A stretch of 64,000 nt of DNA from a virus, in the IMG/VR virus record IMGVR_UViG_3300002835_000063, positions 1 to 64,000 of that record. One strand, given 5' to 3'. The position numbers and the translations under genes were made by a program. Position 1 is the first letter of the stretch; every line of letters starts with the position of its first letter. Shown here one piece after another: positions 43,925 through 62,753 of this stretch. The notes under the pieces were generated by a model. The model worked only from the letters and a program-made list of their open reading frames with translations, had not been told where the DNA came from and searched no databases.

Positions 43925-43943
43925 TTGAGGATAGAGCAAAAAT

Positions 43944-44306
43944 ATGGCAGTACAAATACAACTCAGGAACGACACGGCCGCTAACTGGACGTCTGTAAAT
44001 CCAACGCTCGCCCAAGGTGAGGTTGGCATCGAGCGCGACACCGGCCTCATGAAGATTGGCGACGGAGCTACCGACTGGGATAATCTTGTTTATTCATCTA
44101 TAGACACCACACAAGTTTCTTACACGCATACTCAAAGCGCTGTAAGTAATAACTGGGTAATAGCTCATAACTTGGGATATTACCCAAATATTCAAATCTT
44201 CGACTCTGGAGACAACATGGTCGAGGGCAACGTAACACACTCAAACAATGTTTCCTTGACGGTCACCTTTTCGGCGGGCCTGACCGGAACAGCTTACCTC
44301 TCCTAG
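43944..44306 (+). CDS. Fibre-associated protein with an Mtd/hyaluronidase N-terminal-like domain
   Basis: QLRNDTAANWTSVNPTLAQGEVGIERDTG..KIGDG; HNLGYYP. Confidence 0.7.
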   Translation: MAVQIQLRNDTAANWTSVNPTLAQGEVGIERDTGLMKIGDGATDWDNLVYSSIDTTQVSYTHTQSAVSNNWVIAHNLGYYPNIQIFDSGDNMVEGNVTHSNNVSLTVTFSAGLTGTAYLS

Positions 44307-44320
44307 AAAGAAAAACCTAA

Positions 44321-46063
44321 ATGGCAAAGCAATTCCTGACAGGTCTGAACCTAAATAAGAACGAGCTGCTCAATGCCAGGATTCAAAACCTGACAACTGC
44401 TCCAGCGTCGCCCGTCTCCGGTCAGATCTACTACAACTCAACAGAGGGAACCCTCTATTACTACAACGGCACGAGCTGGCTAGCTCTTGCTCAGGGTGGT
44501 GACGTAAGCGGCGCAATTAACAACGCGATTGCTAACGCAACTACCGACGACATCGACGAAGGTGCTAATAATCTCTATTACACCACCTCTCGTGCTCAAG
44601 AAGATGCAGCTAGTCTTCTAACTAGTGCAACCCTATCTAACATCACAATTACAGGTAATGCTGTAACTGGACTAACCATCACCGCCGAAAACGGTGTAGA
44701 TGATGCCACCACTGATGACCTAGACGAGGGCACCACAAACAAGTACTTCACTGACCTCCGTGCTCAGGAAGCCGCAGCTAACCTTCTAACCAGTGCTACT
44801 CAGACCAACATCAGCATTACTGGTAATGCTATTGCCGGTCTTACAATCACTGCAGAAAATGGTGTAGCCGACTCTACCACTGATGACCTAGTAGAAGGTT
44901 CAAACAACCTCTACTACACCGATGCAAGAGCACGTGATGCTGTAAGCGCTGGAGATAACTCCCTTACTTACAACGCAGTATCTGGTGCATTCACTGCCAA
45001 CACCTCAACCCTTGCAACGGTTTCTTATGTAGACCAAGAAATCTCTGATGTAAACAACACCATTGATGCACTGACTACTTCTGACATCGCCGAGGGAACT
45101 AATGAGTACTTTACTCAAGACCGTGCTCGTCAGTCAATTAGCGCCGGAGACAACTCTCTTACTTACAACGCAGTATCTGGTGTTCTAACTGCCAACACTT
45201 CAACCCTTGCAACTGTAAGCTACGTTAACTCGGTTGTTGAAGGTCTTCACATTCACGCATCTGCTGTGGCTGCAACCACCGGAAACATTAGCATCTCTAA
45301 TGACCTAGAAGTCGGAGATGTTATTGACGGCGTTACCCTTGCTTCAGGCGACCGTGTTCTTGTCAAGAACCAGAACACCGCGTCTGAAAATGGTATTTAC
45401 GTAGTTCAGCCATCTGGTGCAGCTATTCGCGCAGCTGACTTTGACCAGCCAGCAGAGGTTGACGGTGGTGACTTTATCTTCGTAACCGGAGGTACCATCA
45501 ATGACAACACTGGTTGGGTACAGACATCTACCGGTGTAGTAACAATTGGAACTGACCCAATTTACTTCACTCAGTTCTCTGGTTCAGGCACTTTCACCGC
45601 AGGTAATGGTCTAACTCTAGACGGAACCCAGTTCAACGTAGGTGGCACTGCAGATCGCATTACCGTAACTGCTGACGCTGTTGACATTTCTGCCAGCTAC
45701 GTCGGTCAAAGCTCAATTACCACGGTTGGAACTATTAGTACTGGTACATGGCAAGGCAACACGGTTGCTATTGCTTATGGTGGTACTGGTGCAACCACCG
45801 CTGCAGGTGCTCGCTCAAACCTTGGTGCAACTACCAAATATGCAGCTAGCAACACTCTTTTAGAGCCAACTAGCAACGTAGTTACTTGGGCCATTACTCA
45901 CAACCTAAACACCTCGGACGTGTCTGTTCAGATTCGTGACCTAGGCACCAACGCCGAGGTATTTGTAGACGTGGCAATCACCAACGCAAATACCGTAACC
46001 CTATCGTGGAACTCTTCTGCCAACGTAGCTGCTGACAGCTACCGAGCAGTAGTGGTCGGATAA
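44321..46063 (+). CDS. Tail/head fibre protein
   Basis: TTDDLxEGxxNxYxT repeats; GDRVLVKNQ..ENGIY domain. Confidence 0.75.
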   Translation: MAKQFLTGLNLNKNELLNARIQNLTTAPASPVSGQIYYNSTEGTLYYYNGTSWLALAQGGDVSGAINNAIANATTDDIDEGANNLYYTTSRAQEDAASLLTSATLSNITITGNAVTGLTITAENGVDDATTDDLDEGTTNKYFTDLRAQEAAANLLTSATQTNISITGNAIAGLTITAENGVADSTTDDLVEGSNNLYYTDARARDAVSAGDNSLTYNAVSGAFTANTSTLATVSYVDQEISDVNNTIDALTTSDIAEGTNEYFTQDRARQSISAGDNSLTYNAVSGVLTANTSTLATVSYVNSVVEGLHIHASAVAATTGNISISNDLEVGDVIDGVTLASGDRVLVKNQNTASENGIYVVQPSGAAIRAADFDQPAEVDGGDFIFVTGGTINDNTGWVQTSTGVVTIGTDPIYFTQFSGSGTFTAGNGLTLDGTQFNVGGTADRITVTADAVDISASYVGQSSITTVGTISTGTWQGNTVAIAYGGTGATTAAGARSNLGATTKYAASNTLLEPTSNVVTWAITHNLNTSDVSVQIRDLGTNAEVFVDVAITNANTVTLSWNSSANVAADSYRAVVVG

Positions 46064-46098
46064 TTACAGTAAAATAGAACGAAAGAAAGAGGTCACCG

Positions 46099-46326
46099 GT
46101 GTCTATTAAGTTTTTAGCGCCAATTAACGTAGTCCAAGGAACTTCATTCCCTGTGACGGCATACACCGGTGACCTTTTCTTTCGATCAGACTTAGGATCC
46201 ATGTATACCTACGACGGGAACGCGTGGGTCTCAATGACAGCAGCAGACGTCACTAACGTGGATGGCGGAAACGCATCAAGCTCATACAACATTAATTACG
46301 ACGGTGGCGGACCGTCTACTTTTTAG
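46099..46326 (+). CDS. Small structural protein
   Basis: GDLFFRSD...YTYDGNAW; DGG tail. Confidence 0.6.
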   Translation: MSIKFLAPINVVQGTSFPVTAYTGDLFFRSDLGSMYTYDGNAWVSMTAADVTNVDGGNASSSYNINYDGGGPSTF

Positions 46327-46345
46327 GATATAAGGAAATAAGACA

Positions 46346-48568
46346 ATGGCAGTCAGAATTCAGTTTAGGCGCGGAACAGCCGCAGAGTGGGTAGCCGCCA
46401 ATCCGACGCTGGCAGTAGGAGAGCTTGGTCACGAGACCGATACCGGCCAGTTTAAGATCGGTAACGGATCAGCCGACTGGGCAAACCTTGTCTACTCTTC
46501 TGTGAGTGAATCATATGTCGATAATGCTATTGCAAATATAATTGACCTTGCTCCAGCAACTCTTGACACTCTAAATGAGCTAGCAGCAGCACTCGGGGAC
46601 GACCCAGACTTTTTTAATACCGTTGCCAACAATCTAACCGCCCACATCTCAGACACAAGCGTTCACGGGATAGAAAATACTTTAGAACTTGCAACTAGTA
46701 CTGATGTAGCAAACATTTTGGGACAACACTCAGGATCAACAGTTAACGTTCATGGAATTGCAAATACTGCTGAACTAGTACTAAATTCACAACTAGCAGA
46801 CTACACCACTACCGCCAATTTAGTCAATACTTATGCTACTATTGCATCTCTAGCAGACTATGCAACCACAGCAAACGCAGTTTTAACCACTCCAAGTATC
46901 AATGACGCTACTATCAATAATGTTTCTGTAGTTGGAACTGTTACTCTGCCAGATACCACTTCTATTGGAGGTGTTAGTGCTACTGAAATATCATATTTAA
47001 ACAATGTAAGTTCTAGTATTCAAAATCAGCTAAACGATAAAGCACCAACTGACAATGCAATTTTCACTGGAAATATTTCTCTGCCAGCGACAACATCTAT
47101 TGGAGATGTAAGCGCCACCGAAATTGGATATCTAGACAACGTAAGTTCAAATATTCAGGTTCAGTTGGATGCTAAGGCCCCAACAGCTAATGCTAGCTTC
47201 ACCGGATCTATTGCCTTGCCAGCTACTACATCTATTGGAGACATTAGCTCTGCTGAAATTGGATATCTAGATAACGTAAGTTCCAATATTCAAGCTCAGT
47301 TGGATGCCAAGCTTTCCACTTCTTCAGCTGCTAGCATTTACGCCCCACTATCTGACCCAACATTTATTAGCACTGTTACCCTGCCAGCTAATACTACGAT
47401 TGGTTTAGTTACCGGTACAGAAATCGGATATTTAGATAACGTAACTTCTAATATTCAGACTCAGCTGGATGCAAAGGCCCCGACAGCCAACCCCACCTTT
47501 ACAGGCACCGTTTCTGGTATTACAGCAACAATGGTTGGACTTGGAAGCGTTGACAATACCGCTGATTTAGACAAGCCAATTTCTAACGCAACTCAGAGTG
47601 CTCTTGATGCCAAGCTAAGCCTAAGCGGCGGAACAATGACTGGCAAGATTACTCTTGACGGAGATCCATCACAGGCACTGCACGCTGCTACTAAGCAGTA
47701 TGTAGACAATCTTGCAGCCGGTCTCCACATCCACGAGGCCGCTCACGCAGCGACTACCGACACACTGGCAAACTTAATAGCTTCAACTGTTACATATGAC
47801 AATGGAACTGATGGAGTTGGAGCTACCCTAAGCTTGGGAGCAAACCTAACTACACTTGATGGCCACACACTAAACAATGGTGACAGAATTTTGGTTAAGA
47901 ACCAAGCAAACGCTGCTCACAACGGTATTTATGTTCGCACTTCGGCCACCCTACTAACCAGAGCTGATGACTTCAACAGCGCCGCCGAGATTGCTGGTGG
48001 AGATCTAGTATTCGTAGAAAATGGAACTCTCTACAACAGCACTGCCTGGGTAGTCGAGAACGAAGTAAGTACTGTAGGAACTGATGACATTCTTTGGGCT
48101 CAGTTCTCTGGAGCTGGAACGGTTACTGCTGGAACCAATATTCAGGTAGACGGTCTTCAAGTTTCGGTAATTTCTAACCCAACTTTTGCAAACGTTGTAA
48201 CGGCAAGCAGCGGTGTTGCTTTCTCAGATGGAACTCAGACCAAACAGGGTGTCCCCTCAATAACGGTAATTAGCCCTAAGAGTGGTTCCTACACCTTAGC
48301 AAGCTTAGACGAGCGCGACACAATCATTGAGATCAGCAATACAAGTGCTACCACACTCACTATTCCACTTGATTCGACCCTAAACTTCCCGGTTGGAACC
48401 ACATTGGACATCATCCAAACCAACACCGGGCAAGTGACCATAGCTGGCGAGGGTGGAGTAACCGTAAACGCCACCCCAGGCCTAAAACTAAGGGCCCGCT
48501 GGTCATCTGCTACACTATTAAAGCGAGCAGCAAACACTTGGCTGGTATACGGCGACCTGAGCGCTTAA
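46346..48568 (+). CDS. Long fibre protein
   Basis: Mtd-N-like start, APATLDTLNELAAALGDD, four EIxYLxNV repeats, GDRILVKNQ domain. Confidence 0.8.
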   Translation: MAVRIQFRRGTAAEWVAANPTLAVGELGHETDTGQFKIGNGSADWANLVYSSVSESYVDNAIANIIDLAPATLDTLNELAAALGDDPDFFNTVANNLTAHISDTSVHGIENTLELATSTDVANILGQHSGSTVNVHGIANTAELVLNSQLADYTTTANLVNTYATIASLADYATTANAVLTTPSINDATINNVSVVGTVTLPDTTSIGGVSATEISYLNNVSSSIQNQLNDKAPTDNAIFTGNISLPATTSIGDVSATEIGYLDNVSSNIQVQLDAKAPTANASFTGSIALPATTSIGDISSAEIGYLDNVSSNIQAQLDAKLSTSSAASIYAPLSDPTFISTVTLPANTTIGLVTGTEIGYLDNVTSNIQTQLDAKAPTANPTFTGTVSGITATMVGLGSVDNTADLDKPISNATQSALDAKLSLSGGTMTGKITLDGDPSQALHAATKQYVDNLAAGLHIHEAAHAATTDTLANLIASTVTYDNGTDGVGATLSLGANLTTLDGHTLNNGDRILVKNQANAAHNGIYVRTSATLLTRADDFNSAAEIAGGDLVFVENGTLYNSTAWVVENEVSTVGTDDILWAQFSGAGTVTAGTNIQVDGLQVSVISNPTFANVVTASSGVAFSDGTQTKQGVPSITVISPKSGSYTLASLDERDTIIEISNTSATTLTIPLDSTLNFPVGTTLDIIQTNTGQVTIAGEGGVTVNATPGLKLRARWSSATLLKRAANTWLVYGDLSA

Positions 48569-48583
48569 TTAGGAGAGAATTAA

Positions 48584-49960
48584 ATGAGCAAGAGAGCTGG
48601 AAGAAAGTCTCAGGCTTCTAATGACTTTTTAGAGCCAAAAGCCCCGATTAACGTATCTGCTACGGACGTTGGAACTGCCCGTGCCTACAATGATGGCGCT
48701 GCTAGCGTTTCTTTCGAGTTACCAGGAGACTCGCCAGCCGCTACTTCTTATGAAGTTAAAGCATATAAAAATGGAACCACTCTCGACACTACCGCAACTG
48801 GAACAACGGGGGCAAGCTCTCCTATCACAGTTGGCGGGCTAGATTCTGCCACTGGATATACTTTTACAGTATCTGCAACTAACGCTGCTGGCACATCGGC
48901 AGATTCAGCCGCATCTGCTTCTGTAACCATTACAACCGTCCCACAGGCTCCGCAAAGCCCATCAGCCACTTCTACAACTGCTAATCAAGACATCATCTCT
49001 TGGTCAAACGGTGCTAATGGTGGGAAAGCCATAACTAGCACATATTTTGTGTCAAGTGACCAGACCACAAATCCAGGCAACGTAACCATGACCACCAACC
49101 CATGGACTGAGCCAGAAAACGGTGGTTCAACGCAGAACTATACTCTGTATCACGTAAACGATAATGGAACCTCAGCAGGCGCTTCTACCGCTAACGTAAC
49201 TACGATTGCACCATTCTTCCCACCATTCTTCCCACCGTTCTTCCCATTCTTCCCGCCTTTCTTCCCGTTCTTCCCACCGTTCTTCCCACCGTTCTTCCCA
49301 CCATTCTTCCCACCATTCTTCCCGTTCTTCCCACCTTTCTTCCCACCGTTCTTCCCGCCATTCTTCCCACCATTCTTCCCACCGTTCTTCCCACCGATGT
49401 TCCCATTCTTCCCACCGTTCTTCCCACCGTTCTTCCCACCGATGTTCCCATTCTTCCCACCGTTCTTCCCACCTAGATTCCTATGTATTGAAGAAAACAC
49501 AATGATCTTGACACCTAGAGGAGAGATCGCGGCTAAGGATCTTCGAGCAGGAGATACGGTATTGTCAATAGCAATTAATGAGATTGGCAATAACTCTGTT
49601 ACCCCAATTGAATTCACTGTTGGTGCAACTTTGACGAGCACATCGCAGCTAGTCGAGACAAAGATTGTTGGAATTCTAGAGACCGTAAAGACCGGAATAA
49701 CTTACTTCAACGGTAGGTCAGAGGCCAGATATTCTAGCCAGCAGCCACTGTTTGTTAAGTCTGATGGAGAATTCCAGGTAAAGATTGTTTCTAACATTAA
49801 GCTTGGAGATGCTCTCCTGCTGATTAATCCAGATGGAACATACACCGAAGAAGAGGTAACCGAAATTACTCTAGTTTCGGAGCCGGCCAATGTATTCCAA
49901 TTCTCCTGCGAGCCATATCACTGGTTTATAGCTGGTGGCTACTTGGCCCACAATAAGTAA
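48584..49960 (+). CDS. FN3 domains + 88 aa Pro/Phe repeat + C-terminal Hint (intein-like) domain
   Basis: FN3 motifs; PPFF tract at aa 210-297; C301 IEENTMILTPRGEIAAKDLRAGDTVLS...GYLAHNK. Confidence 0.85.
   Translation: MSKRAGRKSQASNDFLEPKAPINVSATDVGTARAYNDGAASVSFELPGDSPAATSYEVKAYKNGTTLDTTATGTTGASSPITVGGLDSATGYTFTVSATNAAGTSADSAASASVTITTVPQAPQSPSATSTTANQDIISWSNGANGGKAITSTYFVSSDQTTNPGNVTMTTNPWTEPENGGSTQNYTLYHVNDNGTSAGASTANVTTIAPFFPPFFPPFFPFFPPFFPFFPPFFPPFFPPFFPPFFPFFPPFFPPFFPPFFPPFFPPFFPPMFPFFPPFFPPFFPPMFPFFPPFFPPRFLCIEENTMILTPRGEIAAKDLRAGDTVLSIAINEIGNNSVTPIEFTVGATLTSTSQLVETKIVGILETVKTGITYFNGRSEARYSSQQPLFVKSDGEFQVKIVSNIKLGDALLLINPDGTYTEEEVTEITLVSEPANVFQFSCEPYHWFIAGGYLAHNK
49211..49474 (+). repeat. 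(CCN CCN TTC TTC)n coding repeat (PPFF/PFF)
   Basis: 12-nt and 9-nt units with synonymous Pro codon variation. Confidence 0.95.
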
Positions 49961-49972
49961 AAGCAGTACTAC

Positions 49973-50017
49973 TAAACTACCCCCCTTATGATTAGTAAGG
50001 GGGGGTGTTTATTTTTT
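49973..50017 (+). terminator. Intrinsic terminator
   Basis: ACCCCCCTTA/TAAGGGGGG(G)T stem plus T run. Confidence 0.75.
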
Positions 50018-50066
50018 AACTTTAATCACTATAATTGAATAGAGTGGTTTAACAGAAAGAATTTAT

Positions 50067-50801
50067 ATGAATACTTGGTTCACAAAAGACAGATCAGAGA
50101 CTGACTCTAATCGAATGCCCCCAAGACCACTGGGCCAAAAAATACAAGTATTAAACCCTGCCTTAGGGATAAATGTATATCGTGGCGCAATAACAAAAGA
50201 AGAGGGCAGGGCTTGCGTAGACATTTTAGAGTCAACCTTAAATGGCCAAACTCAATACAAATGGAGTGATGCTCAAGTTACAAATTCTTCAAAGGCTAAC
50301 CTAGAAGCAAGAAATGCCAAAGATTTTAAATTTAATTCGACTGGCCTAGGGCCAAAAAATGAAGAAAATGAAAAATTATATGAAATGCACGAAAAAATTT
50401 TTAGGGCAGTAAAAGCATGTGTAGATGATTATGGTTATTACTGGGGCGTTGGGATAATGTCATATGAGGCTTTTAACTTTGTTAAGTATGAAGGAGCCGG
50501 GACCCACTTTAAAATTCACGCAGATCATGGCCCAACATATGTAACTACGGTGTCTATTGTCGTGTATCTCAACGATGATTATGAGGGGGGAGAACTTTGG
50601 TTTCCCCGATTTGATTTAACCCTAAAACCACAAGCTGGAGATATAGCAGTTTTTCCGTCAACATACATCTACGAACACGCTTCGCAGGACATGATTAGTG
50701 GGACTAAGTATTCTGTTGTCATTATGAGCGACTATAATGACAGAGATAATGTAAACCAAAGAGTGCCTCAAACCATTCAAAATTATCAACTTAAGTACTA
50801 G
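50067..50801 (+). CDS. 2OG-Fe(II) oxygenase (P4H-like)
   Basis: HAD...YLNDDYEGGEL...HAS...KYS. Confidence 0.9.
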   Translation: MNTWFTKDRSETDSNRMPPRPLGQKIQVLNPALGINVYRGAITKEEGRACVDILESTLNGQTQYKWSDAQVTNSSKANLEARNAKDFKFNSTGLGPKNEENEKLYEMHEKIFRAVKACVDDYGYYWGVGIMSYEAFNFVKYEGAGTHFKIHADHGPTYVTTVSIVVYLNDDYEGGELWFPRFDLTLKPQAGDIAVFPSTYIYEHASQDMISGTKYSVVIMSDYNDRDNVNQRVPQTIQNYQLKY

Positions 50802-50812
50802 AAAGAGCCAAA

Positions 50813-51583
50813 GTGTCAGAACAGATCAACAAAACCGAAGAAGAAGTACGCCTAGAGGCAGAACAAAAAAGTAAAGAAGAGCAAAAAAATATACACGAGC
50901 GGCTAGTAAATTGGTACAAAATTGACGAGGTGACTTGGAGTTCAGCAGAAGAAATTGTTCCTGGCAGCGGCATTTGGGTATACCATGATGTTTTGCCCGC
51001 CGAGATGAATATAATTTCTCGGTTAGAAGAAGTTTTAGATAATCCAGAAAATAACTATCAGTACCAAGAAGCAATGGTCGGATATGCAATGAAAATCCCG
51101 GAGTACCGAGACTGCGTAGATTTTAAATACAAAGAGAATGACTTTGACAATGATCAGTCAGAGTGGGGTGACAAGCTTCGACAGTTGGCAAAAGATACAA
51201 AGTATAGACAGCTACAGGTAGTAAAAGATTACACAAGAAGATATAACATCGGCGAACTTCGTTACTGGGAAGCAACCAACTATGTTCGCTATGGAGTTGG
51301 CCAACACTTCCAGGAACATCACGATCACGGGTACTCCTACAACTGTGTAGTTTCTTTGGTTGCGTACCCAAATGACGACTACGAAGGCGGTGAGCTTTAT
51401 TTCAGATTACAAAACATAACTGCTAAAGCCCGCGCTGGCGATGTTTTTATTTTTCCCTCTAATTTTATGTACCCACACAGGGCAATGCCAGTTAAGTCTG
51501 GAGTTAAATACTCTATGGTTACTATGCTTGATTACTCAGAAAAACTACACAATCCAGAATTTTTTAAGGAGCTAGAGAACTAG
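50813..51583 (+). CDS. 2OG-Fe(II) oxygenase (P4H-like)
   Basis: HHD...NDDYEGGEL...HRA...KYS. Confidence 0.9.
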   Translation: MSEQINKTEEEVRLEAEQKSKEEQKNIHERLVNWYKIDEVTWSSAEEIVPGSGIWVYHDVLPAEMNIISRLEEVLDNPENNYQYQEAMVGYAMKIPEYRDCVDFKYKENDFDNDQSEWGDKLRQLAKDTKYRQLQVVKDYTRRYNIGELRYWEATNYVRYGVGQHFQEHHDHGYSYNCVVSLVAYPNDDYEGGELYFRLQNITAKARAGDVFIFPSNFMYPHRAMPVKSGVKYSMVTMLDYSEKLHNPEFFKELEN

Positions 51584-52329
51584 TGTCAATAGTTTCGATA
51601 CAAAAGCTTTTTAAAGAGGGAGACGTTGCAAATATTGAGCAACTTCCAGCCCGTAGAGACTGGATGGATCAAACTCAGGACAAACATGCCTACATGTGTT
51701 TTCCCTTAAATCTAACAAACAGGCTTGGTTGGTCAATATCTTTTCCGGAGGATATTTCTTTTATTTGGGACGGAGTAACAGATACTTCTCCAGATCATGT
51801 AAAAATTTTAAAAGGAGAAAAATTTGTTCACCCAACTAGGGGAAATGCAACAATTAGTTTTTTAACTGGTTTAAAGTTCACAACAGACCAAAATACTTCT
51901 ATATTGGCAATGCCAGTACCCAACTTGTTTATCAGGGGGGCGCAGTGCTACACAACTCTGATGAGCACCTCTTTTTATATACACATGCTTCCACTGGCCT
52001 GGAGAATTACTGAACCAAACATAGAAATAGAAATACCAGCCGGAACCCCCGTAGCTTCAATTTTGCCAATCTCTTTAACAAATCTAGAGAACGACTACGA
52101 ACTTCAAATTACCGAGGACCTGCCAGACGGATCCTACTGGGAAGAAGTTAGAAAGTATGGCGATGCAACCATAATTAAAAATGGCGCGGGCGACTGGTCA
52201 AAAATGTATAGAGATGCCCTAGACTATAACGGAAATTCTGTTGGCTCTCATGAAACTAAATCAATAAAATTAAAAACTGTAGTATGCCCGGCTACAGGAA
52301 AAAACTATGAAATAGAGGAAACTATTTAA
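51583..52329 (+). CDS. DUF6065-like protein
   Basis: RDWMDQT..HAYMCFPL..NRLGW. Confidence 0.7.
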   Translation: MSIVSIQKLFKEGDVANIEQLPARRDWMDQTQDKHAYMCFPLNLTNRLGWSISFPEDISFIWDGVTDTSPDHVKILKGEKFVHPTRGNATISFLTGLKFTTDQNTSILAMPVPNLFIRGAQCYTTLMSTSFYIHMLPLAWRITEPNIEIEIPAGTPVASILPISLTNLENDYELQITEDLPDGSYWEEVRKYGDATIIKNGAGDWSKMYRDALDYNGNSVGSHETKSIKLKTVVCPATGKNYEIEETI

Positions 52330-53069
52330 TGGAAACTAAAAAAATTAAGTTTGTAGTAAATAGACCTTGGTTAAGTAAAGAAAGTAGTTCTCTGCCAAAA
52401 CCAACAATAAAAACTATTCCAGATTGGTACAGAGAGGGGGATCGATATGCAAAACATCCAGTAACTGGAGAGTACTGGAAAGATCCGCAGAATGGCGGAA
52501 AAATTCCAACTTGGAAAGCTTGCCCATCGGTATATGACATCATGGGCTCTGGCTATGTTTACAGGACTCCCTGCGACATTGAATTTAAAGAAAATATTTA
52601 CGGACAAATAGAAGCCAAAGTTTTAGACGAAAAAAATAAAGACTTTTTGCAACTTAGAACGCCCATGCCAGGATTTAAAGCTCCAATGGGATACCACGAT
52701 GTTCATTTTGCGTGGTGGGCTGATTGGGCGGTCGAATTGCCCGAGGGGTATAGTGCACTTTACTCCCAGCCGTTTAATAGATTTGAACTGCCGTTTATTA
52801 CAACTAGTGGAATTATTGATAACGACAAAGTCCATTTGCCGGGGACAATGCCATTTTTTGTTGTAAAAGGATTCCAAGGAGTTCTACCAGCAGGAACTCC
52901 GTATGCTCAGATCTTGCCATTTTTAAGAGAGCACTGGGAATCTGAAATTGTAGATTCCATAGGTTACGAAAAAATGGTACAAAAAAATATGGACAACAGC
53001 CAAAAATACAGGGTCCCAGACGGCGGGGTTTACCAAAAAGATGTCTGGGAACGAAGAAAATACGAATAA
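52329..53069 (+). CDS. DUF6065-related hypothetical protein
   Basis: PDWY...TWKACP..D...GY; SGIIDND; AGTPYAQILP matches AGTPVASILP of the neighbour. Confidence 0.6.
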   Translation: METKKIKFVVNRPWLSKESSSLPKPTIKTIPDWYREGDRYAKHPVTGEYWKDPQNGGKIPTWKACPSVYDIMGSGYVYRTPCDIEFKENIYGQIEAKVLDEKNKDFLQLRTPMPGFKAPMGYHDVHFAWWADWAVELPEGYSALYSQPFNRFELPFITTSGIIDNDKVHLPGTMPFFVVKGFQGVLPAGTPYAQILPFLREHWESEIVDSIGYEKMVQKNMDNSQKYRVPDGGVYQKDVWERRKYE

Positions 53070-53083
53070 GATAAACTAGACCC

Positions 53084-53767
53084 ATGAGAAACGACTACAC
53101 AAATAACAACATTACTCCATATATGTCAATAACCCCTTCAGGATTTTTTGGCGATTCTGCAGAAAATATTGTTGCTATTGACGACTTTATGACCGAAGAA
53201 GAATTAACCTATCTAAACAATTTTGCTAGGAAAAATACCATGTGGGACGCAACCGAGACTCACTATAACGAAGATGGTACAGTGATTTATGACTCTTCTT
53301 ACTGGGATCATCGAGTTGCAACGGCTCCCATATTAAAAGAAGCTGATATAAAAGTAGTTGAACTAATATCTGATATGCAAGATAGATTAAAGAAAAAAGT
53401 TGATACTTTTTTCGCAGTGGATGCTCATCCCACAAGCCCGGCGCTAGTTAGGTGGCTACCCGGACAAAGACAGCAACCGCACGCAGATAAAGAACTACAT
53501 GAGGGCGAGGGCAGGGGGAAGCCAAATGACTTCCCATACTATGACATAGCTGGCCTTTTTTATATAAACGATGACTATGAGGGAGGAGAGCTATATTTCC
53601 CTAACCAAGGTATTCAATTTAAACCAAAAGCCGGATCAGCTTACTTTTTTCCAGGAGACATGAATTATATCCACGGAGTCACAGAAATCAAGTCTGGAAT
53701 TAGATATGTTTGCCCATTTTTCTGGACAATAAAAGAGCACACTGGCAACCACAAACCAAATTTATAG
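53084..53767 (+). CDS. 2OG-Fe(II) oxygenase
   Basis: HAD...YINDDYEGGEL...HGV...RY. Confidence 0.9.
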   Translation: MRNDYTNNNITPYMSITPSGFFGDSAENIVAIDDFMTEEELTYLNNFARKNTMWDATETHYNEDGTVIYDSSYWDHRVATAPILKEADIKVVELISDMQDRLKKKVDTFFAVDAHPTSPALVRWLPGQRQQPHADKELHEGEGRGKPNDFPYYDIAGLFYINDDYEGGELYFPNQGIQFKPKAGSAYFFPGDMNYIHGVTEIKSGIRYVCPFFWTIKEHTGNHKPNL

Positions 53768-53798
53768 TAGAATTATCATCAACAAGCAAGGATCTAAA

Positions 53799-54578
53799 AT
53801 GCATTTAGCCCAGAAACTACACGAAGAAGTTTATCTATACGAGGATGTAATTAGTGATCCCAAAAAACTTATTGATTTAATTGAAGAATTAGATGAAGAC
53901 GAAACTGTCCAAAGCGTAATTCCAGAATGGGGCTTTTGGTTTTCAAACAGCCGTGACGGTCACAGTTTCGGCAGTAAAAAAGATTTTAATCCAGAAGCCT
54001 TAGATCAACTAGACTCATCTAGAAAAGAAGATGTTGAGTTTATAGTAAAAGAAATTCAGAGTGGTGTAAAAAATGTTGCAGAATCCTACTACAAAGATAG
54101 AGGACTAGAGGGTCAACCACAAATATCTCCGTTTGTTGGAATTATGAAGTACCGCCCAGGCTGCGAAATGGGCGCACACTTTGACGCTCAGGCCGGAGAT
54201 AGAAGTTTAAAGTATTCGATTGTGATGTATTTAAATGACGACTATGAGGGCGGAGAGATCTCCTTTATTATTAGACCATATGATTTAAGAAACCCAAAAA
54301 ATTTCCACCTTCAACCATCAACCGATGCTGACGACCCCAAAAATAAAGATCTCACAGACTTTACGCTAAAACCAAAAGCTGGATCAGCATTAATTTTTCC
54401 CTCTACTCATCCGTATAAGCACCAAGTTCACATAATTAAGGGTGGAGATAAGTATATTTTCCCTGGTTTTGTTTTTCAAGATGATTTTGATCCAAATGAT
54501 CCAGCTTCTAGAGAAAAATACAATGCCGGATCTCTATACGAAAAGCCAACCGAAGACGTTTATTTCGACGAAGACTAA
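53799..54578 (+). CDS. 2OG-Fe(II) oxygenase
   Basis: HFD...YLNDDYEGGE...HQV...KY. Confidence 0.9.
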   Translation: MHLAQKLHEEVYLYEDVISDPKKLIDLIEELDEDETVQSVIPEWGFWFSNSRDGHSFGSKKDFNPEALDQLDSSRKEDVEFIVKEIQSGVKNVAESYYKDRGLEGQPQISPFVGIMKYRPGCEMGAHFDAQAGDRSLKYSIVMYLNDDYEGGEISFIIRPYDLRNPKNFHLQPSTDADDPKNKDLTDFTLKPKAGSALIFPSTHPYKHQVHIIKGGDKYIFPGFVFQDDFDPNDPASREKYNAGSLYEKPTEDVYFDED

Positions 54579-54582
54579 TAAA

Positions 54583-55197
54583 ATGTATGAGGCCATTTCG
54601 CCAAAAGTTCTATACTTTAAAAATTTTTATAAAGACACAGAAAAGTTTTTAGAGGCTATAGAAAGCTCCCCACCCTGGGAACCATGGAATTCTCGGGGTG
54701 GCCAAAATATTTTTACTTACGGAGTATTAAAAACATTTCATACCCAAGAATACAAACAAATAGCAGATATTAATCAAAAAAATTCTAGTAAATTTATTAT
54801 TAATGCCATGAAAAAAATAAATTTAGTCTGCGGATCAGAGTATTTAAAACATTTTCAATGCTCGGACAATGAATTAAGTAGATTAAAAAAGTCCATTTTA
54901 ACGGATAAAATAATTATTGGCGTAAAAAAATATTTTGAGGGGGGGACCACCCTAGGCCCACACCCAGACGCGGACCTACAATCATCAAAAGATGAAATAA
55001 GCATAACTTTTTATCCAAACGATAATTATGAGGGCGGAGAATTAAATTTTCCCGATTTGGGGCTAACAATTAAACCAGAGGCCGGAAGTGTGGTCATATA
55101 CCCATCAAAATATTTACATGAATCTTTCCCCGTTCCCACGGGAGAAAAGTTGGTGTCTAATCACGTATACATTGGACTGGAAAAAATATGGAAATAA
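54583..55197 (+). CDS. 2OG-Fe(II) oxygenase
   Basis: HPD...YPNDNYEGGEL...HES...K; start moved to the ATG at 54583. Confidence 0.85.
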   Translation: MYEAISPKVLYFKNFYKDTEKFLEAIESSPPWEPWNSRGGQNIFTYGVLKTFHTQEYKQIADINQKNSSKFIINAMKKINLVCGSEYLKHFQCSDNELSRLKKSILTDKIIIGVKKYFEGGTTLGPHPDADLQSSKDEISITFYPNDNYEGGELNFPDLGLTIKPEAGSVVIYPSKYLHESFPVPTGEKLVSNHVYIGLEKIWK

Positions 55198-55844
55198 AAT
55201 ATGAAATACCTTACGAGAATATTGTTTATTTTCCAGAAATTGTTCCGGACGTAGATAACATAATTTCTTCAATAGAGTCCACAAATAGTCTAGCTATAAC
55301 TAAATGGGAAATTTGGAATGCTTATGGAGAATCAGACGGGGATCCATATGGCGAAGTAAAATACATGAGCAAACATCTTTTAGATGCAGAGACTAACCAA
55401 AAAACTGTAGAAACCTCAAAATATATAATTTCTACGCTAATAAGTTCAATGTCATTAGCAGCCGAAACTTACGCAAAAATATATAACATTGATTCTAACC
55501 TTTTGCAGTATGCAATTGATGCATTAAATATGCCTGGCACAAAATATGGAATAAACAAATATTTTGAGAATCAATACATGGGACCACACGTTGACTGGAA
55601 TGAGTACAACTCCGACATTACTTATACCATTGTTGTTTACTTGAACGATGATTACGAAGGCGGGGAGCTATTTTTTGTGGATCCGGACATAAACATAAAA
55701 ATAAAACCTAAAAAGGGAAGCATAGTAATGTTTCCATCTGTCCTGCCATATCTGCATCAATCCTGTGAGATTACTAAGGGAAGAAAAATGCTGATAACTC
55801 ATCACTGGAAAAATGATTCACTATCAAGAAACAGGACTTACTAA
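55188..55844 (+). CDS. 2OG-Fe(II) oxygenase
   Basis: HVD...YLNDDYEGGEL...HQS...K. Confidence 0.9.
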   Translation: MEIKYEIPYENIVYFPEIVPDVDNIISSIESTNSLAITKWEIWNAYGESDGDPYGEVKYMSKHLLDAETNQKTVETSKYIISTLISSMSLAAETYAKIYNIDSNLLQYAIDALNMPGTKYGINKYFENQYMGPHVDWNEYNSDITYTIVVYLNDDYEGGELFFVDPDINIKIKPKKGSIVMFPSVLPYLHQSCEITKGRKMLITHHWKNDSLSRNRTY

Positions 55845-56698
55845 TGTCAATTAATGTAAATCTTATTGAAGTTTTTTCTAAAGAAGATCTCTATTCTAGA
55901 CTAAACGAAATTTTAGATGTTCAAACTAAAAATTCCATTGTTGGGATTAGAGGAGTTAGGCTTACTGAAGAAGAGCAGCTACAGCTAGCCAGAGATCTCG
56001 GAGACATAGCTGGCTGGTTCCCAAACAACACCGACAAATTTAATCACAAATATATTGAAAATCACTCTGCCAACCCATCGGTGGGAGCCTCTTCAAATAA
56101 CGAATTAATTTTAAGCTGGCACCTAGAGCGCGTCGATTATGACGAATATCTTTTGTTGGTGGCTGGCGTTTGGAACATGAGACTTTTTAATTGTGATCCA
56201 GAATCGGGTAAAACATATTTTATAGATTCCAGAAAAGTGTTCCAAAAAATTTACAATGAAGATGAAAAGAATTTTTTGCGAGGCTGCAAAGCCTACTGGA
56301 CAGAACAAACGCCAAGCGGCAATACACGCACTAATTATGTAAAGATTGTTCAGCCCCATTGGAAGACCGAAGAAGAACAAATTAGAGTTGAGCTACACCA
56401 TATGGCTGCAATTAAATTGTACAAAATAAACGATAATGACCCAACTTCAGAAGAAGCGGCCGCCTTTGAGTCATTAATGAAAAGATTTTCTCAAGAAATA
56501 GCAAACAACGAAGATTTAAGAATAATTCACAAATGGAAAGAGGGAGACATCCTCATTCCAGATCTTTTCTCTCTAGCGCACGCCGTCACGGGCGGATTTG
56601 ACCCCAAAGACAGAGAGTTTACCGGATACTGGTGCTATACGGCGTCTCCCTCTAGTGTTGGAGAAGACAATGTCCCGCCATCTTGGAGGGGTGAATAA
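55844..56698 (+). CDS. TauD/TfdA-family dioxygenase
   Basis: WHLE, GKTYFID, HKWKEGDILIPD...AH...R. Confidence 0.8.
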   Translation: MSINVNLIEVFSKEDLYSRLNEILDVQTKNSIVGIRGVRLTEEEQLQLARDLGDIAGWFPNNTDKFNHKYIENHSANPSVGASSNNELILSWHLERVDYDEYLLLVAGVWNMRLFNCDPESGKTYFIDSRKVFQKIYNEDEKNFLRGCKAYWTEQTPSGNTRTNYVKIVQPHWKTEEEQIRVELHHMAAIKLYKINDNDPTSEEAAAFESLMKRFSQEIANNEDLRIIHKWKEGDILIPDLFSLAHAVTGGFDPKDREFTGYWCYTASPSSVGEDNVPPSWRGE

Positions 56699-56700
56699 GC

Positions 56701-57171
56701 TTGAACGATTTAAATCCAACAAATGAAGTATATGTAAATCAATACAAAGAAGCTGTAAAACAAAATAAAGCAAATTCTTATATGCTCACTATTGCCAGAG
56801 ACGGCGAATCACCAGTCAGGTCAATTTATTTTTATGATAATGCAGTAGACGCCACTATTGGATATGAAGCATACCAAGACTGGGGATTTGCTAAAGACTA
56901 TCTAACGGTGGAGCTATATGAGCCAACTGGAAGGGTTCACAGCAAAGTTTTGCGCAGGCCTCGCGGTGGAGAGTGCACTTTTGAGCGGGCACAGTACTAC
57001 CAAATTTCTGACATAATAAACGCCGTTAAGCCAAAAGTAGACGAGGAAGCATTCAACTACCTAGCCTACGAGTTTGCTAAGCTATTCTCGAAGGACAACC
57101 AAAGGTTTAATCCAGAGCGATTTTTAGAGACGCTGGGATATACAGGAGAAATAAATGACAGATCTGTCTAA
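56701..57171 (+). CDS. Hypothetical protein
   Basis: 156 aa ORF; DNQRFNPERF motif. Confidence 0.65.
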   Translation: MNDLNPTNEVYVNQYKEAVKQNKANSYMLTIARDGESPVRSIYFYDNAVDATIGYEAYQDWGFAKDYLTVELYEPTGRVHSKVLRRPRGGECTFERAQYYQISDIINAVKPKVDEEAFNYLAYEFAKLFSKDNQRFNPERFLETLGYTGEINDRSV

Positions 57172-57889
57172 GATCGAGACTACCCCGACAGAGTTTGGCG
57201 ATAAGGGATTTATCAAAGAAGATATTGTTTTTTACAATAATTTTCTAACCCAAGAAGAGTGTGAGACCCTGGTTAGAGTATTCGAGGACGAAGAGCAACC
57301 CTGGAGCATGTCAGCTTTTTTTGAGTCGTACGGCATGAGTATTATGCCAGAAGACCCGATTTTAGAGCGATACGGGTTACCTAGAGATTACTTTGGGAAA
57401 CTAGCAGATAGGCTACATAAGGTAGTAGAAGATGCCCACGAGCGTCCAGTAAAATCAGTTTCGTCTCATGCCCAGAAGTGGCAAATAGGGGCGTTTGCTC
57501 CATTTCATTCAGACAACACCGACATGGATGGAAACCCGTCTGCCTGGGAGAAAAGCAAACTTGTCTGCCTCTTGTACATAAATGACGACTATGAGGGCGG
57601 AGAGCTAGACTTTAGGGATCACGATATCTCGATCAAACCGGTGGCGGGCCAGTTAATTACTTTCCCCGGCGGATTTAATAACATCCACCAAGTGTTGCCA
57701 GTGAGGGGCTCTACGAGACATACCATTGGAGCTTTCTGGGATTATGCCGAATCGGTCTACTCCGAAGAGCGCATGAAGCAATGGGAAGATGAAATCCAAA
57801 AGGTCCGAGAAGAGCAAAAAGTCATGCAGGACGAGTGGAAAGAAATGGTTGCCAAGGGGGTCCACCCCACGGATCCGGGCGCTCAATAG
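57155..57889 (+). CDS. 2OG-Fe(II) oxygenase
   Basis: HSD...YINDDYEGGEL...HQV...RH. Confidence 0.9.
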   Translation: MTDLSKIETTPTEFGDKGFIKEDIVFYNNFLTQEECETLVRVFEDEEQPWSMSAFFESYGMSIMPEDPILERYGLPRDYFGKLADRLHKVVEDAHERPVKSVSSHAQKWQIGAFAPFHSDNTDMDGNPSAWEKSKLVCLLYINDDYEGGELDFRDHDISIKPVAGQLITFPGGFNNIHQVLPVRGSTRHTIGAFWDYAESVYSEERMKQWEDEIQKVREEQKVMQDEWKEMVAKGVHPTDPGAQ

Positions 57890-57953: not shown

Positions 57954-58331
57954 ATGAGTCATTTGCGTGGCAATATCCATGATCTAATCACAGATCAGGG
58001 ATCTACTGTACACCAGGTATTTACTATCAAAAACTCGGCTCGTCGGATAATCCCCCTAACCGGGTATTCGGCTCGTATGCAAGTCAGACGTTGGGACGTG
58101 GAAACCAGGGATCCCGTCCTAACAACTATCGCTGAATATACAACTGCAAACGGATATCTAACCGTCAACGGTGCCGCGGGAACCGTGACTCTTCTTATTC
58201 CGCCCGCCGATATGGCAGCATACGAGCCAGGTTCTTATGTTTACGACATCGAGGTCGAGACAGCAAATGCTGGAGATACCACTCGGATCATCCAGGGAAA
58301 ATTTATTGTGAGAGCTGAGGTAACCAAGTAG
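57954..58331 (+). CDS. Putative fibre adaptor/structural protein; paralog of 42855-43217
   Basis: DQGST...GYSARMQVR...YVYDIE...[11 protein letters not shown]. Confidence 0.65.
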
Positions 58332-60742
58332 TGGTACTCTCTGACAATTTTGCATATGTAGACGTTAAAGGTCCTGGACCTCAAGGACCTGCAGGACCAA
58401 CAGGACCTGCAGGACCAGCAGGTGGACCAACTGGACCCACAGGTGTCACGGGACCGACAGGTGCAACGGGACCATCTGTTACAGGTCCAACAGGTCCTAC
58501 TGGACCTACTGGAAACTTAGGTCCTACGGGCCCAACAGGTCCTCAGGGTATTGCAGGTTTGTCAGTCACCGGTGCAACTGGTGCAACTGGAGCAACTGGT
58601 GCAGCCGGTGCTACAGGACCAACTGGAGCACAGGGTATTGCAGGTTTATCAATTACTGGACCAACTGGTGCTGCAGGCGTTGCAGGTCCAACAGGACCAA
58701 CCGGTGCAACTGGTGCAGCAGGTTCTGATGGACTAAGCATTACTGGACCAACTGGACCAACTGGTGCTGCAGGCGTTGCAGGTCCAACAGGACCTACTGG
58801 GTCGCAAGGTATTGCTGGTTTATCAATTACTGGACCTACCGGTGCGCAAGGAAACGTGGGCCCAACTGGTGCAACAGGACCTACTGGGTCGCAAGGTATT
58901 GCTGGTTTATCAATTACTGGACCTACCGGTGCTCTTGGTCCCACTGGTCCCACTGGCCCTACGGGCCCAACTGGCGCAGACAGCATGGTTACAGGTCCGA
59001 CTGGTCCTACAGGACCCACAGGTCCTACCGGAGCAACTGGAGCAACTGGTGCAGACAGCATGGTTACAGGTCCGACTGGTCCTACAGGACCCACAGGTCC
59101 TACCGGAGCAACTGGAGCAACTGGTGCAGACAGCATGGTTACAGGTCCGACTGGTCCAACCGGTGCAACTGGACCTCAAGGAATATCACTAGAGCTAATT
59201 GGATCAGTAGAGAATATAATTGATCTACCGCCCAGTGCAAATATTAACGAAGCATATATTGTCCAAGCCGATGGAAATCTTTATGTGTGGGACGGCGCTC
59301 AATGGGTAGATGTTGGCCAAATTGTTGGACCCATTGGACCGACTGGCCCAACTGGCCCAACGGGAGCAACTGGACCTCAGGGCAATCAGGGCATCCAAGG
59401 TGTTCAAGGCGACACCGGACCCATTGGACCGACAGGCGCAACTGGCCCAGAAGGAAATTATTATGTTGGAGATAATCCTCCACTAACTCCTACAGAGGGC
59501 GATGGTTGGTTCAACACTTCTACAACAAAATTCTTTATTTACTACGACAATTTTTGGATTGAAGTTGCCACCACCGAGCGAGGCCCAACTGGAGCGACTG
59601 GAGATACAGGGCCAGCTGGACCAACAGGTTCCACCGGAGCGACTGGAGATACGGGACCTCAAGGTATTCAGGGTGTAACTGGACCTACCGGAGCGACTGG
59701 AGATACGGGACCTCAAGGTATTCAGGGTGTAACTGGACCTACCGGAGCGACTGGAGATACGGGAGCTACGGGCCCTACCGGAGCGACTGGAGATACGGGA
59801 GCTACGGGCCCTACCGGAGCTGATGCACTGTGGAATTTCACTGGACCATATCAAATAGGGTCTTCTTATGCAGTGGGCGATGTTGCTACCTATGGTGGAC
59901 AGACTTGGTATCGCATAGACGCAAATGGTGGAAACACCGGAGACACCCCATCAGAGGGAACATTCTGGACATTGATAGCGCAAGCAGGAGCTATCGGCGA
60001 CACAGGCCCTACTGGAGCGACTGGAGACACTGGACCTCAAGGTATTCAGGGTGTAACTGGACCTACCGGAGCGACTGGAGACACTGGACCCCAAGGGCCA
60101 ACTGGACCAACGGGTGACACAGGCCCGACGGGCCCGACGGGATTGGGTATTCCACTGGGTGGCGACACCGGTCAAATTTTGGCAAAAGACTCTCCAGCCG
60201 ATGGCGACTATGTTTGGGTTGACAACTATGCTGATTGGACTGCTGTTGTTAAGCACGAAGTTAGAGCAGAGCAAGTATTAACAAAAGGTCAAGCTGTCTA
60301 TGTTAGCTCTTCTGATGGCACCAACATGCGAGTCTCTAAATCGTCTAATGCTACAGAATCAGCATCAAGCAAAACCCTGGGAATTATTGCTCAGAATTTG
60401 GCAGTAAACGGTCAAGGCTTCGTAATAACAGAGGGCCTTCTAGCTGGTCTAAACACATCGACCGCTACAACTGGAGATCCAATTTGGCTTGGAACTGATG
60501 GAAACTTAATTTTTGGCTTAGCAAACAAGCCATCAGCTCCAGCTCATTTAGTTTATTTAGGTGTCGTAACTAGAGTAAATCTTAACAATGGTGAGATATT
60601 TGTTAAGGTTCAAAATGGATTTGAACTGCAAGAACTTCACAATGTAAAAATTAACGGCATCCAAGGCGGCGATATTTTGTCTTACAATGCAATTAGCCAG
60701 CTTTGGGAAAATATTCATGTTGTTGACGGAGGTACGCCATAA
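58331..60742 (+). CDS. Collagen-like fibre protein
   Basis: Extensive [12 protein letters not shown] triplets interrupted by globular domains. Confidence 0.88.
58976..59157 (+). repeat. Exact 75-bp tandem duplication (2 copies plus partial)
   Basis: Units start at 58976, 59051 and 59126. Confidence 0.9.
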
Positions 60743-61542
60743 TGGCTATTGATTTTCCAAATAGTCCGTCTATAGGACAACAAGTTTCTGCAAATGGCAC
60801 CATCTGGGAGTGGGATGGAATTGCTTGGGTTGTAATTGGGACACCTGTTTCCATTGGCCCAACTGGACCAATCGGGCCAACTGGACCGCAAGGCAGCCAA
60901 GGAATTACTGGTCCAACAGGAAGCACTGGTCCAACAGGCGCTGACAGCACAGTACCGGGACCAACCGGACCAACTGGACCCCAAGGAGATACGGGTCCAA
61001 CAGGCATTCAAGGAAACGTGGGTCCTACCGGACCACAGGGAATTCAAGGCCCAACCGGAGCAGTTGGTTCCCAGGGTGTGCAGGGTGCAACAGGTCCAAC
61101 TGGACATCAAGGTGATACAGGACCAACTGGCGCAACAGGAGACACTGGACCTCAAGGAAACATCGGAGACACAGGGCCTGCAGGACCGACTGGAGCAACT
61201 GGAGACACAGGGCCTGCAGGACCGACTGGAGCAACTGGTGCAACTGGTGCAACTGGACCTACAGGAGCAGATGGAACATTCTTAGTTTCAAGCTCAGTGC
61301 CGCCAACCCCCACCGAGGGTCAAATTTGGTTTAATTCAGTTGAAGGTAAATTATTAATTTTCTATGACGGTTTTTGGGTAGAAACAATTGTCGGTGAGGT
61401 TGGAGCGACAGGACCAACCGGTCCAGCGGGGAGCTCTACTTTGTATACTCCAACAACACCATTAGATTGGGTCACCACCCCAAATACTATCTCTGAAGCA
61501 TTAGATCAACTTGCTAGTAGAATAAAAGCACTAGAACCGTAG
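60742..61542 (+). CDS. Collagen-like fibre protein
   Basis: [14 protein letters not shown] start; long Gly-X-Y run. Confidence 0.85.
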
Positions 61543-61553
61543 GATAAACATAA

Positions 61554-62735: not shown

Positions 62736-62753
62736 AAATACCGAGGACTAATA

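Follow-up and report, generated by a model that had tools for sequence, protein, structure and literature searches.

A phage fibre protein with a long tract of Pro and Phe and the oxygenase cluster that follows its gene appear to be functionally coupled. Both lie at positions 48584-57889 of a 64,000-nt stretch of viral DNA (positions 1 to 64,000 of the IMG/VR record IMGVR_UViG_3300002835_000063; hereafter the window). The repeat protein, P0001, combines FN3 domains, repeated Pro-Pro-Phe-Phe (PPFF) and a terminal Hint domain, and the 11 genes after it encode seven prolyl 4-hydroxylase (P4H)-like 2-oxoglutarate (2OG)/Fe(II) oxygenases, a TauD-like oxygenase, a DUF6065 protein, a DUF6065-like protein and one protein assigned to no family. 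Comparison of related loci partly supports the coupling and points to Pro as the likely target. As an explanation of the whole we favour, with moderate confidence, a fibre-appendage protein paired with its own tailoring cassette, which would hydroxylate the prolines of the tract. The region contains the following features:

48584-49960, + strand: FN3-FN3-(PPFF)n-Hint protein P0001 (458 aa), last gene of fibre module 1
49211-49477, + strand: Pro/Phe tract of P0001 (residues 210-298), the proposed hydroxylation substrate; in the DNA a 12-bp tandem repeat, CCACCGTTCTTC x23
49484-49957, + strand: Hint (bacterial intein-like) domain of P0001, Cys301 ... His-Asn-Lys-stop
49980-50014, + strand: terminator-like hairpin between fibre module 1 and the enzyme cluster; 10-bp stem (6 G-C pairs), stem-loop 49980-50004, T-rich tail
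50067-50801 and 50813-51583, + strand: P4H-like oxygenases 1 and 2, the conserved first pair of the cluster; PF13640 above cut-off, triad and Lys/Arg intact
51583-52329, + strand: DUF6065 protein; PF19541, E 3e-25, 89.3 bits against a cut-off of 26.6
52329-53069, + strand: DUF6065-like protein (phrog_7084); hhalign to DUF6065 52% probability, E 1e-4; no Pfam match
53084-53767, 53799-54578, 54442-55197 and 55188-55844, + strand: P4H-like oxygenases 3-6; PF13640
55844-56698, + strand: TauD-family 2OG oxygenase; PF02668, E 1.5e-16, 61.6 bits against a cut-off of 27
56701-57171, + strand: family-less 156-aa protein, true start perhaps residue 28; kept only in the closest relatives
57155-57889, + strand: P4H-like oxygenase 7; PF13640

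Pro-rich tracts and the enzyme cluster occur together

An exhaustive HMMER search for the FN3-FN3-tract-Hint family returned orthologues with Pro-rich tracts (PPFF, PPYF, PPHF and PPGFFA types) and others with aromatic, Pro-poor tracts such as FSPFGVFG, FTPFG and (G-A-F)n. We classified 190 loci of this orthologue set, for which the loci of the Pro-poor relatives were fetched too, and counted the 170 IMG/VR loci with enough flanking sequence. A Pro-rich tract with a downstream cluster was found in 119 loci and a Pro-poor tract without a cluster in 51, while no locus was discordant; the apparent exceptions to this covariation in an initial count were frame-shifted or mis-trimmed tracts. Within 10 kb downstream the cluster-bearing loci have a median of 6 oxygenase genes (range 2-11) and the cluster-less loci a median of 1 (range 0-2). 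DUF6065 proper was observed in all 118 Pro-rich loci and in none of the 51 Pro-poor ones, and the DUF6065-like gene in 90 and 36 of them, respectively.

The relation also holds when the search starts from the enzymes. At least 200 DUF6065 relatives are present in IMG/VR, and the best 80 loci were kept, chosen by DUF6065 alone. In these loci a fibre gene is followed by the tract protein, by one or two oxygenases and by DUF6065; the DUF6065-like gene often comes next, and the series closes with at least four oxygenases. Upstream flank of at least 1.5 kb is retained in 53 of the loci, and 50 of these have an aromatic/Pro tract no more than 3 kb before the first oxygenase; the three tract-less loci are cut at or inside the cluster. 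Run over the whole window, the same tract detector reported two true tracts and nothing else. The first-pass annotation had suggested co-occurrence and synteny of repeat protein and cluster as a check, and had named clusters routinely occurring without such a protein as evidence to the contrary; searched from both sides, the loci do not yield that contrary evidence, the repeat protein standing just upstream in nearly every DUF6065-selected locus that could show it.

Tracts collected in other ways behave similarly. A DNA pattern for (PPFF)4 matched at least 120 viral contigs, and among the 49 whole records searched for PF13640 this family was found in 43, mostly in 6-13 copies, though most of the records are fragments. 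Tracts carried on unrelated N-terminal domains likewise adjoin oxygenase and DUF6065 genes, in differently arranged clusters. Secondary tracts occur in other fibre genes 4-8 kb upstream of the repeat gene and, in the window, about 12.8 kb downstream of it, beyond the cluster; nine of PP type were found in cluster-bearing loci and none in cluster-less loci.

For an estimate of how often the two traits changed we used FN3-domain trees (FastTree, 188 rows; IQ-TREE, 81 representatives). Well-supported branches of these trees require six changes of tract type and six of cluster presence, and all six independent contrasts agree (sign test, p 0.031). On a Hint-domain tree seven changes of each trait coincide with no discordant locus, and two of the contrasts fall on supported branches. 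Because the presence of the cluster follows the Pro-richness of the tract, Pro in the tract is the likeliest substrate of the enzymes. Phe is present in both tract types, and Phe-rich but Pro-poor tracts lack the cluster, so that Phe is not favoured as a target. Of the earlier proposal that the tract is hydroxylated at Pro and Phe, the comparative evidence thus supports the first half and not the second.

The repeat protein, its tract and its Hint domain

Open reading frame (ORF), Pfam match, AlphaFold model and Hint profile agree on the make-up of P0001 that had been read from the sequence, namely FN3 domains, an 88-residue Pro/Phe tract and a terminal Hint domain. The two FN3 domains match PF00041 above the gathering cut-off, and in an AlphaFold model run with 17 homologues their predicted local distance difference test score (pLDDT) is about 90. 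The tract consists of Pro and Phe only, except for two Met, with PPRF at its end. Its DNA unit is CCA-CCG-TTC-TTC, repeated 23 times, and all indels are multiples of three. Synonymous variation of the Pro codons had been taken as a sign of selection on the peptide; this argument loses most of its force, because the codon alternation sits mostly inside the 12-bp unit itself. Better evidence for such selection is the conservation of the tract among diverged orthologues, whose FN3 regions are 57-77% identical in one orthologue set and less so across the wider family.

(PPFF)-type tracts were found on several architectures: they end in PPxFK-stop, in Cys-rich tails or in Hint, or they form internal linkers. 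Hint-less relatives of P0001 end soon after ...PPRF or bear short acidic or Cys-rich tails. In some cluster-less orthologues (loci L316, L323 and L346) the tract reads (Gly-Ala-Phe)n, formally a collagen-type Gly-X-Y repeat with Phe at Y, and no oxygenase cluster is near. Their formal Gly-X-Y character is a hint that the tract may take the shape of an extended helical stalk, which could be trimeric. In the literature PPFF strings were found only in mammalian Pro-rich antimicrobial peptides such as PR-39, a resemblance without evidence of kinship, and the likeness to antamanide and cyclolinopeptide noted earlier has no bearing on the question.

The Hint assignment rests on a sequence profile, since Foldseek with the whole P0001 model returned tandem FN3 structures only. 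Taken as a single sequence, the C-terminus matches three Hint Pfam models below their cut-offs; a profile of seven orthologous Hint domains found the bacterial intein-like (BIL) domain 2lwy at E 1.3e-9 and at least 10 mini-inteins at E <1e-3, and the domain is modelled with a pLDDT of about 90. The N-terminal nucleophile, Cys301, is invariant in 17 aligned orthologues, and P0001 ends in AHNK-stop, which preserves the C-terminal His-Asn, while several relatives end in VIS or VIA. The Thr-x-x-His of block B reads S-S-Q-Q in P0001, with Ser/Thr kept and His replaced by Gln; the His is retained in some relatives only (SLDH, SDQH, TLEH). This replacement makes the activity of the P0001 domain uncertain. 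The residue at +1 is Lys, followed directly by the stop, and there is no Cys, Ser or Thr to serve as nucleophile of a C-extein, so splicing is impossible and cleavage alone could occur.

Among Pro-rich orthologues 62 have the Hint domain and 60 do not, and among Pro-poor orthologues 47 of 56 have it. Hint presence is thus independent of the cluster and limited to about half of the Pro-rich orthologues, which places the domain outside the tailoring logic, as an optional and probably self-removing cap rather than a ligation or release device. These counts, together with the altered block B of P0001, give no support to the earlier idea that Hint processing exposes or ligates the substrate. The accompanying idea of a product akin to ribosomally synthesized and post-translationally modified peptides (RiPPs) fits no better: the candidate substrate is a 458-aa multidomain protein with two FN3 domains in a fibre module, in place of a short precursor, and known RiPP enzyme families are absent from the cluster.

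In its fold, N-terminal Cys, terminal His-Asn and missing C-extein the domain resembles Hint domains of the BIL and Hedgehog types (e.g. 2lwy), for which cleavage rather than splicing is expected. It differs from them in the replaced block B His and in being dispensable in about half of the Pro-rich orthologues, and cleavage in P0001 is a prediction. The self-cleaving Peptidase_S74 chaperones of phage tail spikes and fibres may offer a functional analogy, as C-terminal fibre domains that aid assembly and then remove themselves; however, their fold and chemistry are different, and the Pfam scan gave no Peptidase_S74 match.

The enzyme cluster

The gene content of the cluster had been counted correctly in the first-pass annotation. 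All seven P4H-like genes score above the PF13640 cut-off (33.8-54.3 bits against 27). The iron triad H151, D153 and H204 (numbering of the first sequence) is invariant in 10 paralogues, seven from the cluster and three from elsewhere in the window, and the 2OG-binding Lys/Arg follows about 10 residues past the second His in all of them. Among solved structures the P4H of Bacillus anthracis (E 3e-6) and, for one window paralogue, the viral P4H of PBCV-1 (E 0.007) come nearest. An NCBIfam scan gave sub-threshold matches to PKHD-type hydroxylases only. The enzymes are classed as P4H-like, with a predicted peptidyl-proline hydroxylase activity. Oxygenases 1 and 2 have orthologues of 66-76% identity in related loci, and no TauD homologue is labelled in the 80 DUF6065-selected loci. 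The GTG start of the fifth oxygenase at 54442 creates a 137-nt overlap with the preceding gene and a hydrophobic N-terminal extension unlike its paralogues, and the true start is probably further downstream. A hidden Markov model of the paralogues detected five further P4H-like ORFs at 23070-24315 and 30224-32013 of the window, three of them above the PF13640 cut-off.

DUF6065 and its phrog_7084 neighbour appear to be distant paralogues, judged from their profile alignment; among the nearest ESM Atlas clusters of the DUF6065-like protein, part carry PF19541. One Cys is invariant in alignments of DUF6065-type proteins. A profile search of the PDB found nothing for the DUF6065-like protein and only chance-level matches for DUF6065. 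The model of DUF6065, which is of low confidence (pLDDT 60), matches the dUTPase fold, with 23 rows at Z 9.2-5.2 and the next at 3.3. We found no paper on DUF6065. In 185,579 species genomes the family was seen on just three short contigs of metagenome-assembled genomes (MAGs; L347-L349), binned to a Bacteroidetes MAG and an Acidimicrobiaceae MAG. These contigs probably derive from phages and give no more than a weak hint of the host.

Flanking fibre modules

From 42.8 to 63.6 kb of the window every gene lies on the + strand, in three blocks: fibre module 1 (42855-49960), the enzyme cluster (50067-57889) and fibre module 2 (57954-63632). The flanking genes are:

42855-48568, + strand: fibre module 1 upstream of the repeat gene; Pfam Mtd_N and Collagen matches, PHROG tail-fibre families
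42855-43217, + strand: assembly-protein-like gene, module 1
43217-43924, + strand: small collagen-like gene, module 1
43944-44306, 44321-46063 and 46346-48568, + strand: Mtd_N-headed fibre genes, module 1
57954-62735, + strand: fibre module 2, assembly-protein-like gene (57954-58331), then three collagen-repeat fibre proteins, (G-P-T)n
62754-63632, + strand: last gene of fibre module 2 (P0002), in which a (PPFF)5 linker (about 63126-63254) joins an N-terminal domain to a He_PIG immunoglobulin-like domain

The gene order of module 1 recurs in related loci, and the assembly-like gene of module 2 is a paralogue of that in module 1. Two features of module 2 were missing from the first-pass annotation, namely the three collagen-repeat fibre genes (58331-62735), which lie directly downstream of the enzyme cluster, and the second PPFF tract in P0002, which is shorter than the first. 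Both fibre modules around the cluster terminate in a PPFF protein.

The terminator that had been described between the repeat gene and the cluster was found as the hairpin at 49980-50004 with its T-rich tail, and 33 of the 46 distinct intergenic regions compared among orthologous loci have a hairpin like it. The G+C content is 0.35-0.39 in the cluster and 0.45-0.53 in the fibre modules; GC skew (window 50000-57000) is positive in the cluster and negative in the flanking modules. Beyond the window, at 69.4-72.2 kb of the record (L012:7446-10166), we observed a sulfotransferase-like gene (weak match), an adenosine 5'-phosphosulfate kinase-like gene and a family-2 glycosyltransferase fused to TPR repeats, whose TPR part has a faint, sub-cut-off match to the peptide-substrate-binding domain of P4H. 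Hydroxylation followed by sulfation was proposed for bacterial operons by Iyer et al. (PMC2938197).

Relation to known systems

We found no published description of a system of tract and oxygenases of this kind. Its closest known counterparts are the dioxygenase array of phage Syn9 and the prolyl hydroxylase of PBCV-1. PBCV-1 (PDB 5c5t) likewise encodes a P4H-family 2OG/Fe(II) enzyme together with non-collagen Pro-rich repeats in the same genome, which are of the Pro-Ala-Pro-Lys type. However, it is a eukaryotic virus with a single enzyme, while the phage has seven or more paralogues, DUF6065 partners and a PPFF polymer in a bacteriophage fibre module. According to Eriksson et al. 1999, as cited in PMC7019647, the PBCV-1 enzyme acts on Pro-rich repeat peptides.

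Syn9 gp41-gp54 form a tandem dioxygenase array with a dUTPase-fold protein that has a conserved cysteine, and synthesis of secondary metabolites has been proposed for it (PMC2938197). Syn9 gp43 (L350:16055-16843) matches the phrog_7084/DUF6065-like profile at E 1.1e-12 and probably corresponds to the protein to which Iyer et al. ascribe a dUTPase fold and a conserved cysteine; this match makes the window cassette and the Syn9 array kin through their partner protein. Both have many diverged 2OG dioxygenases near fibre genes, and the window cluster, with its eight oxygenase genes, shows the same combination of tandem dioxygenases and a dUTPase-fold Cys protein. In contrast, the Syn9 enzymes are mostly 2OG-FeII_Oxy_5, PhyH and JmjC, only gp50 matches the P4H-like profile, and Syn9 has two tryptophan halogenases and no Pro-Pro-aromatic tract, while neither tryptophan halogenases nor a JmjC/MINA-clade member was found among the 11 cluster genes (Pfam, E 0.01 or better). 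In Syn9 the array follows closely on the putative fibre genes gp32-34.

In Synechococcus phage S-SCSM1, two tail-fibre genes stand between groups of four and three 2OG oxygenase genes, and about 270 residues of the 'short tail fiber' (L351:3934-5199) form a low-complexity tract in which Arg, Pro and Phe abound (RQPRNFR-like). S-SCSM1 may thus offer a parallel, in that a low-complexity fibre tract adjoins an oxygenase array. A pattern and window scan of Syn9, S-SCSM1 and ACG-2014f found no Pro-Pro-aromatic tract, and the Pro rule therefore has no test case in these phages.

Plant and algal extensins and Pro-rich proteins carry Pro-rich repeats that are stiffened into polyproline-II rods by prolyl hydroxylation. 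They are comparable by analogy only, as encoded repeats turned into a stiff rod by P4H; the window repeat is unrelated to them in sequence, is half Phe, has no Ser-Pro motifs and belongs to the bacterial cytoplasm and the virus particle.

Proposed role of the cluster and alternative explanations

In the mechanism that we propose, the repeat protein consists of two FN3 domains, an extended Pro-Pro-Phe-Phe polymer and an optional C-terminal Hint cap. A separately transcribed cassette of seven diverged P4H-like dioxygenases and a pair of dUTPase-fold DUF6065-type proteins would hydroxylate the Pro-Pro dipeptides of the P0001 polymer, and probably also the shorter PPFF linker of the 62754-63632 protein. 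The domain make-up, the intact catalytic residues, the kept gene order and the strict covariation of a Pro-rich tract with the cluster are established, whereas we infer that the tract is the substrate, that hydroxyproline is the product and that the protein is part of the virion. The product would be a hydroxyproline-rich stalk of polyproline-II type, with greater stiffness and solubility than the unmodified Phe-rich chain. Individual paralogues could specialise in certain positions, ring carbons or substrate proteins, and the collagen-like fibres may be a target of some of them. In proteins that have the Hint domain, it would act as a C-terminal cap that removes itself, much like a C-propeptide or an intramolecular chaperone, and its predicted cleavage would leave the mature end ...PPRF, as in relatives that stop after the tract.

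Several observations weigh against this reading. Every line of evidence for it is comparative. The hairpin between gene and cluster and the lower G+C content of the cluster leave co-expression uncertain. AlphaFold gives no structure for the P0001 tract (residues 210-297, pLDDT <50). The extra P4H-like ORFs lie on both strands about 18-27 kb upstream of the cluster, among unrelated genes. Since tract and cluster are adjacent, one recombination can shift both, and the six changes on the fibre-gene tree may overstate their independence. The related arrays of Syn9 and S-SCSM1 do without a Pro-Pro-aromatic tract. Finally, in PBCV-1, the best precedent, hydroxyproline was not found in virions (PMC7019647).

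Canonical collagen P4H acts on X-Pro-Gly, that is, on Pro at Y. The enzymes could be classical collagen prolyl hydroxylases of this kind acting on the collagen-like proteins encoded at 58331-62735 and 43217-43924, with PPFF as an unmodified linker. Three collagen-repeat genes do follow the cluster in the window and its closest relatives, and the nearest solved homologue, the P4H of B. anthracis, is also deposited as 'procollagen-proline dioxygenase'. Collagen-like substrates were moreover proposed for bacterial hydroxylase operons by Iyer et al. (PMC2938197). However, in the four collagen-like proteins of the window Pro stands at X in 119 triplets and at Y in two (G-P-T). Of 54 cluster-bearing loci 24 have collagen-like ORFs, as do 10 of 32 cluster-less loci, and many cluster loci with 10 kb of downstream flank have no collagen gene. 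Since collagen ORFs do not track the cluster and their Pro is at X, collagen is a poor alternative substrate; it would also leave unexplained why the cluster is absent exactly where the tract has no Pro-Pro. We therefore regard this explanation as unlikely.

A metabolic role, in which the array serves to produce or modify a small molecule or a peptide metabolite, or modulates host 2OG or nucleic-acid chemistry, and has no target in the virion, likewise seems to us improbable. It draws on the kinship through gp43 with the Syn9 array, which Iyer et al. placed in secondary metabolism (PMC2938197), on the link made by Sullivan et al. between phage 2OG oxygenases and 2OG/NtcA physiology or DNA repair (PMC3037559), on the cluster's own transcription unit and lower G+C content, and on the oxygenase copies among unrelated genes at 23-32 kb of the window. 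However, it does not predict a strict covariation with the Pro content of a neighbouring fibre protein; genes for halogenases, non-ribosomal peptide synthetases, ATP-grasp proteins and transporters are absent from the cluster in Pfam scans; and the Syn9 and S-SCSM1 arrays adjoin fibre genes too.

Phage fibre regions are notoriously mosaic, and tract and cluster adjoin in nearly all loci, so a block of the fibre-gene 3' end and the cluster might move as a unit by inherited linkage without any function, a view helped by the fact that just two of the seven Hint-tree contrasts lie on supported branches. We consider it quite improbable, because the covariation holds on trees of the domains on either side of the tract, for secondary tracts in other genes several kb away and for unrelated N-terminal domains with differently arranged clusters, and because the complete absence of discordant recombinants from the counted loci is unexpected under neutral linkage in a mosaic region.

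Tailoring of the tract prolines by the neighbouring cassette would matter in several ways. Large aquatic phages carry many 2OG/Fe(II) oxygenase genes whose purpose has been guessed since at least 2007-2010 (DNA repair, 2-oxoglutarate physiology, secondary metabolites). Viral or cellular P4H acting on Pro-rich structural repeats is already known; new here is a testable substrate for orphan phage arrays, and the lineage adds a natural control series in the Pro-poor orthologues of enzyme-less phages. If true, it would, to our knowledge, be without precedent as phage-encoded prolyl hydroxylation of a virion protein and would give DUF6065 its first function; it would also describe a new self-assembling Pro/aromatic polymer of interest for biomaterials. 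More tentatively, and with less than even confidence, we suggest that phages run an extracellular-matrix-style chemistry of their own, in which prolyl hydroxylases and dUTPase-fold partners would make a hydroxyproline-rich (Pro-Pro-Phe-Phe)n rod, maybe sulfated or glycosylated by the enzymes encoded 12-14 kb downstream, and in which the arrays of aquatic phages, including cyanophages, would tailor low-complexity fibre tracts and thereby tune adsorption.

Source genome and distribution

The source record is a 108,880-bp IMG/VR entry for an uncultured lake phage, with a CheckV completeness of 65%, which also encodes a ribonucleotide reductase, a carbamoyltransferase, a nucleotide-sugar epimerase and an endolysin. 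Among GenBank phages, megablast with the region and tblastn with DUF6065 and one oxygenase found nothing, and tblastn with the repeat protein gave one weak Hint match and nothing else; that collection thus contains no cultured phage of the lineage. Parts of the fibre and oxygenase genes are covered at low depth by contigs from two freshwater metatranscriptome runs and two wastewater cDNA libraries (possibly DNA), and one contig spans the hairpin, although contigs from RNA libraries cannot establish transcription, its strand or its level. DNA near-identical to 48584-57889 (94-98% of sampled 31-mers) was detected in metagenomes of lake, freshwater and river origin, in no fewer than 16 runs that belong to at least 11 studies between 2016 and 2025. 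The source phage is common and widespread in freshwater.

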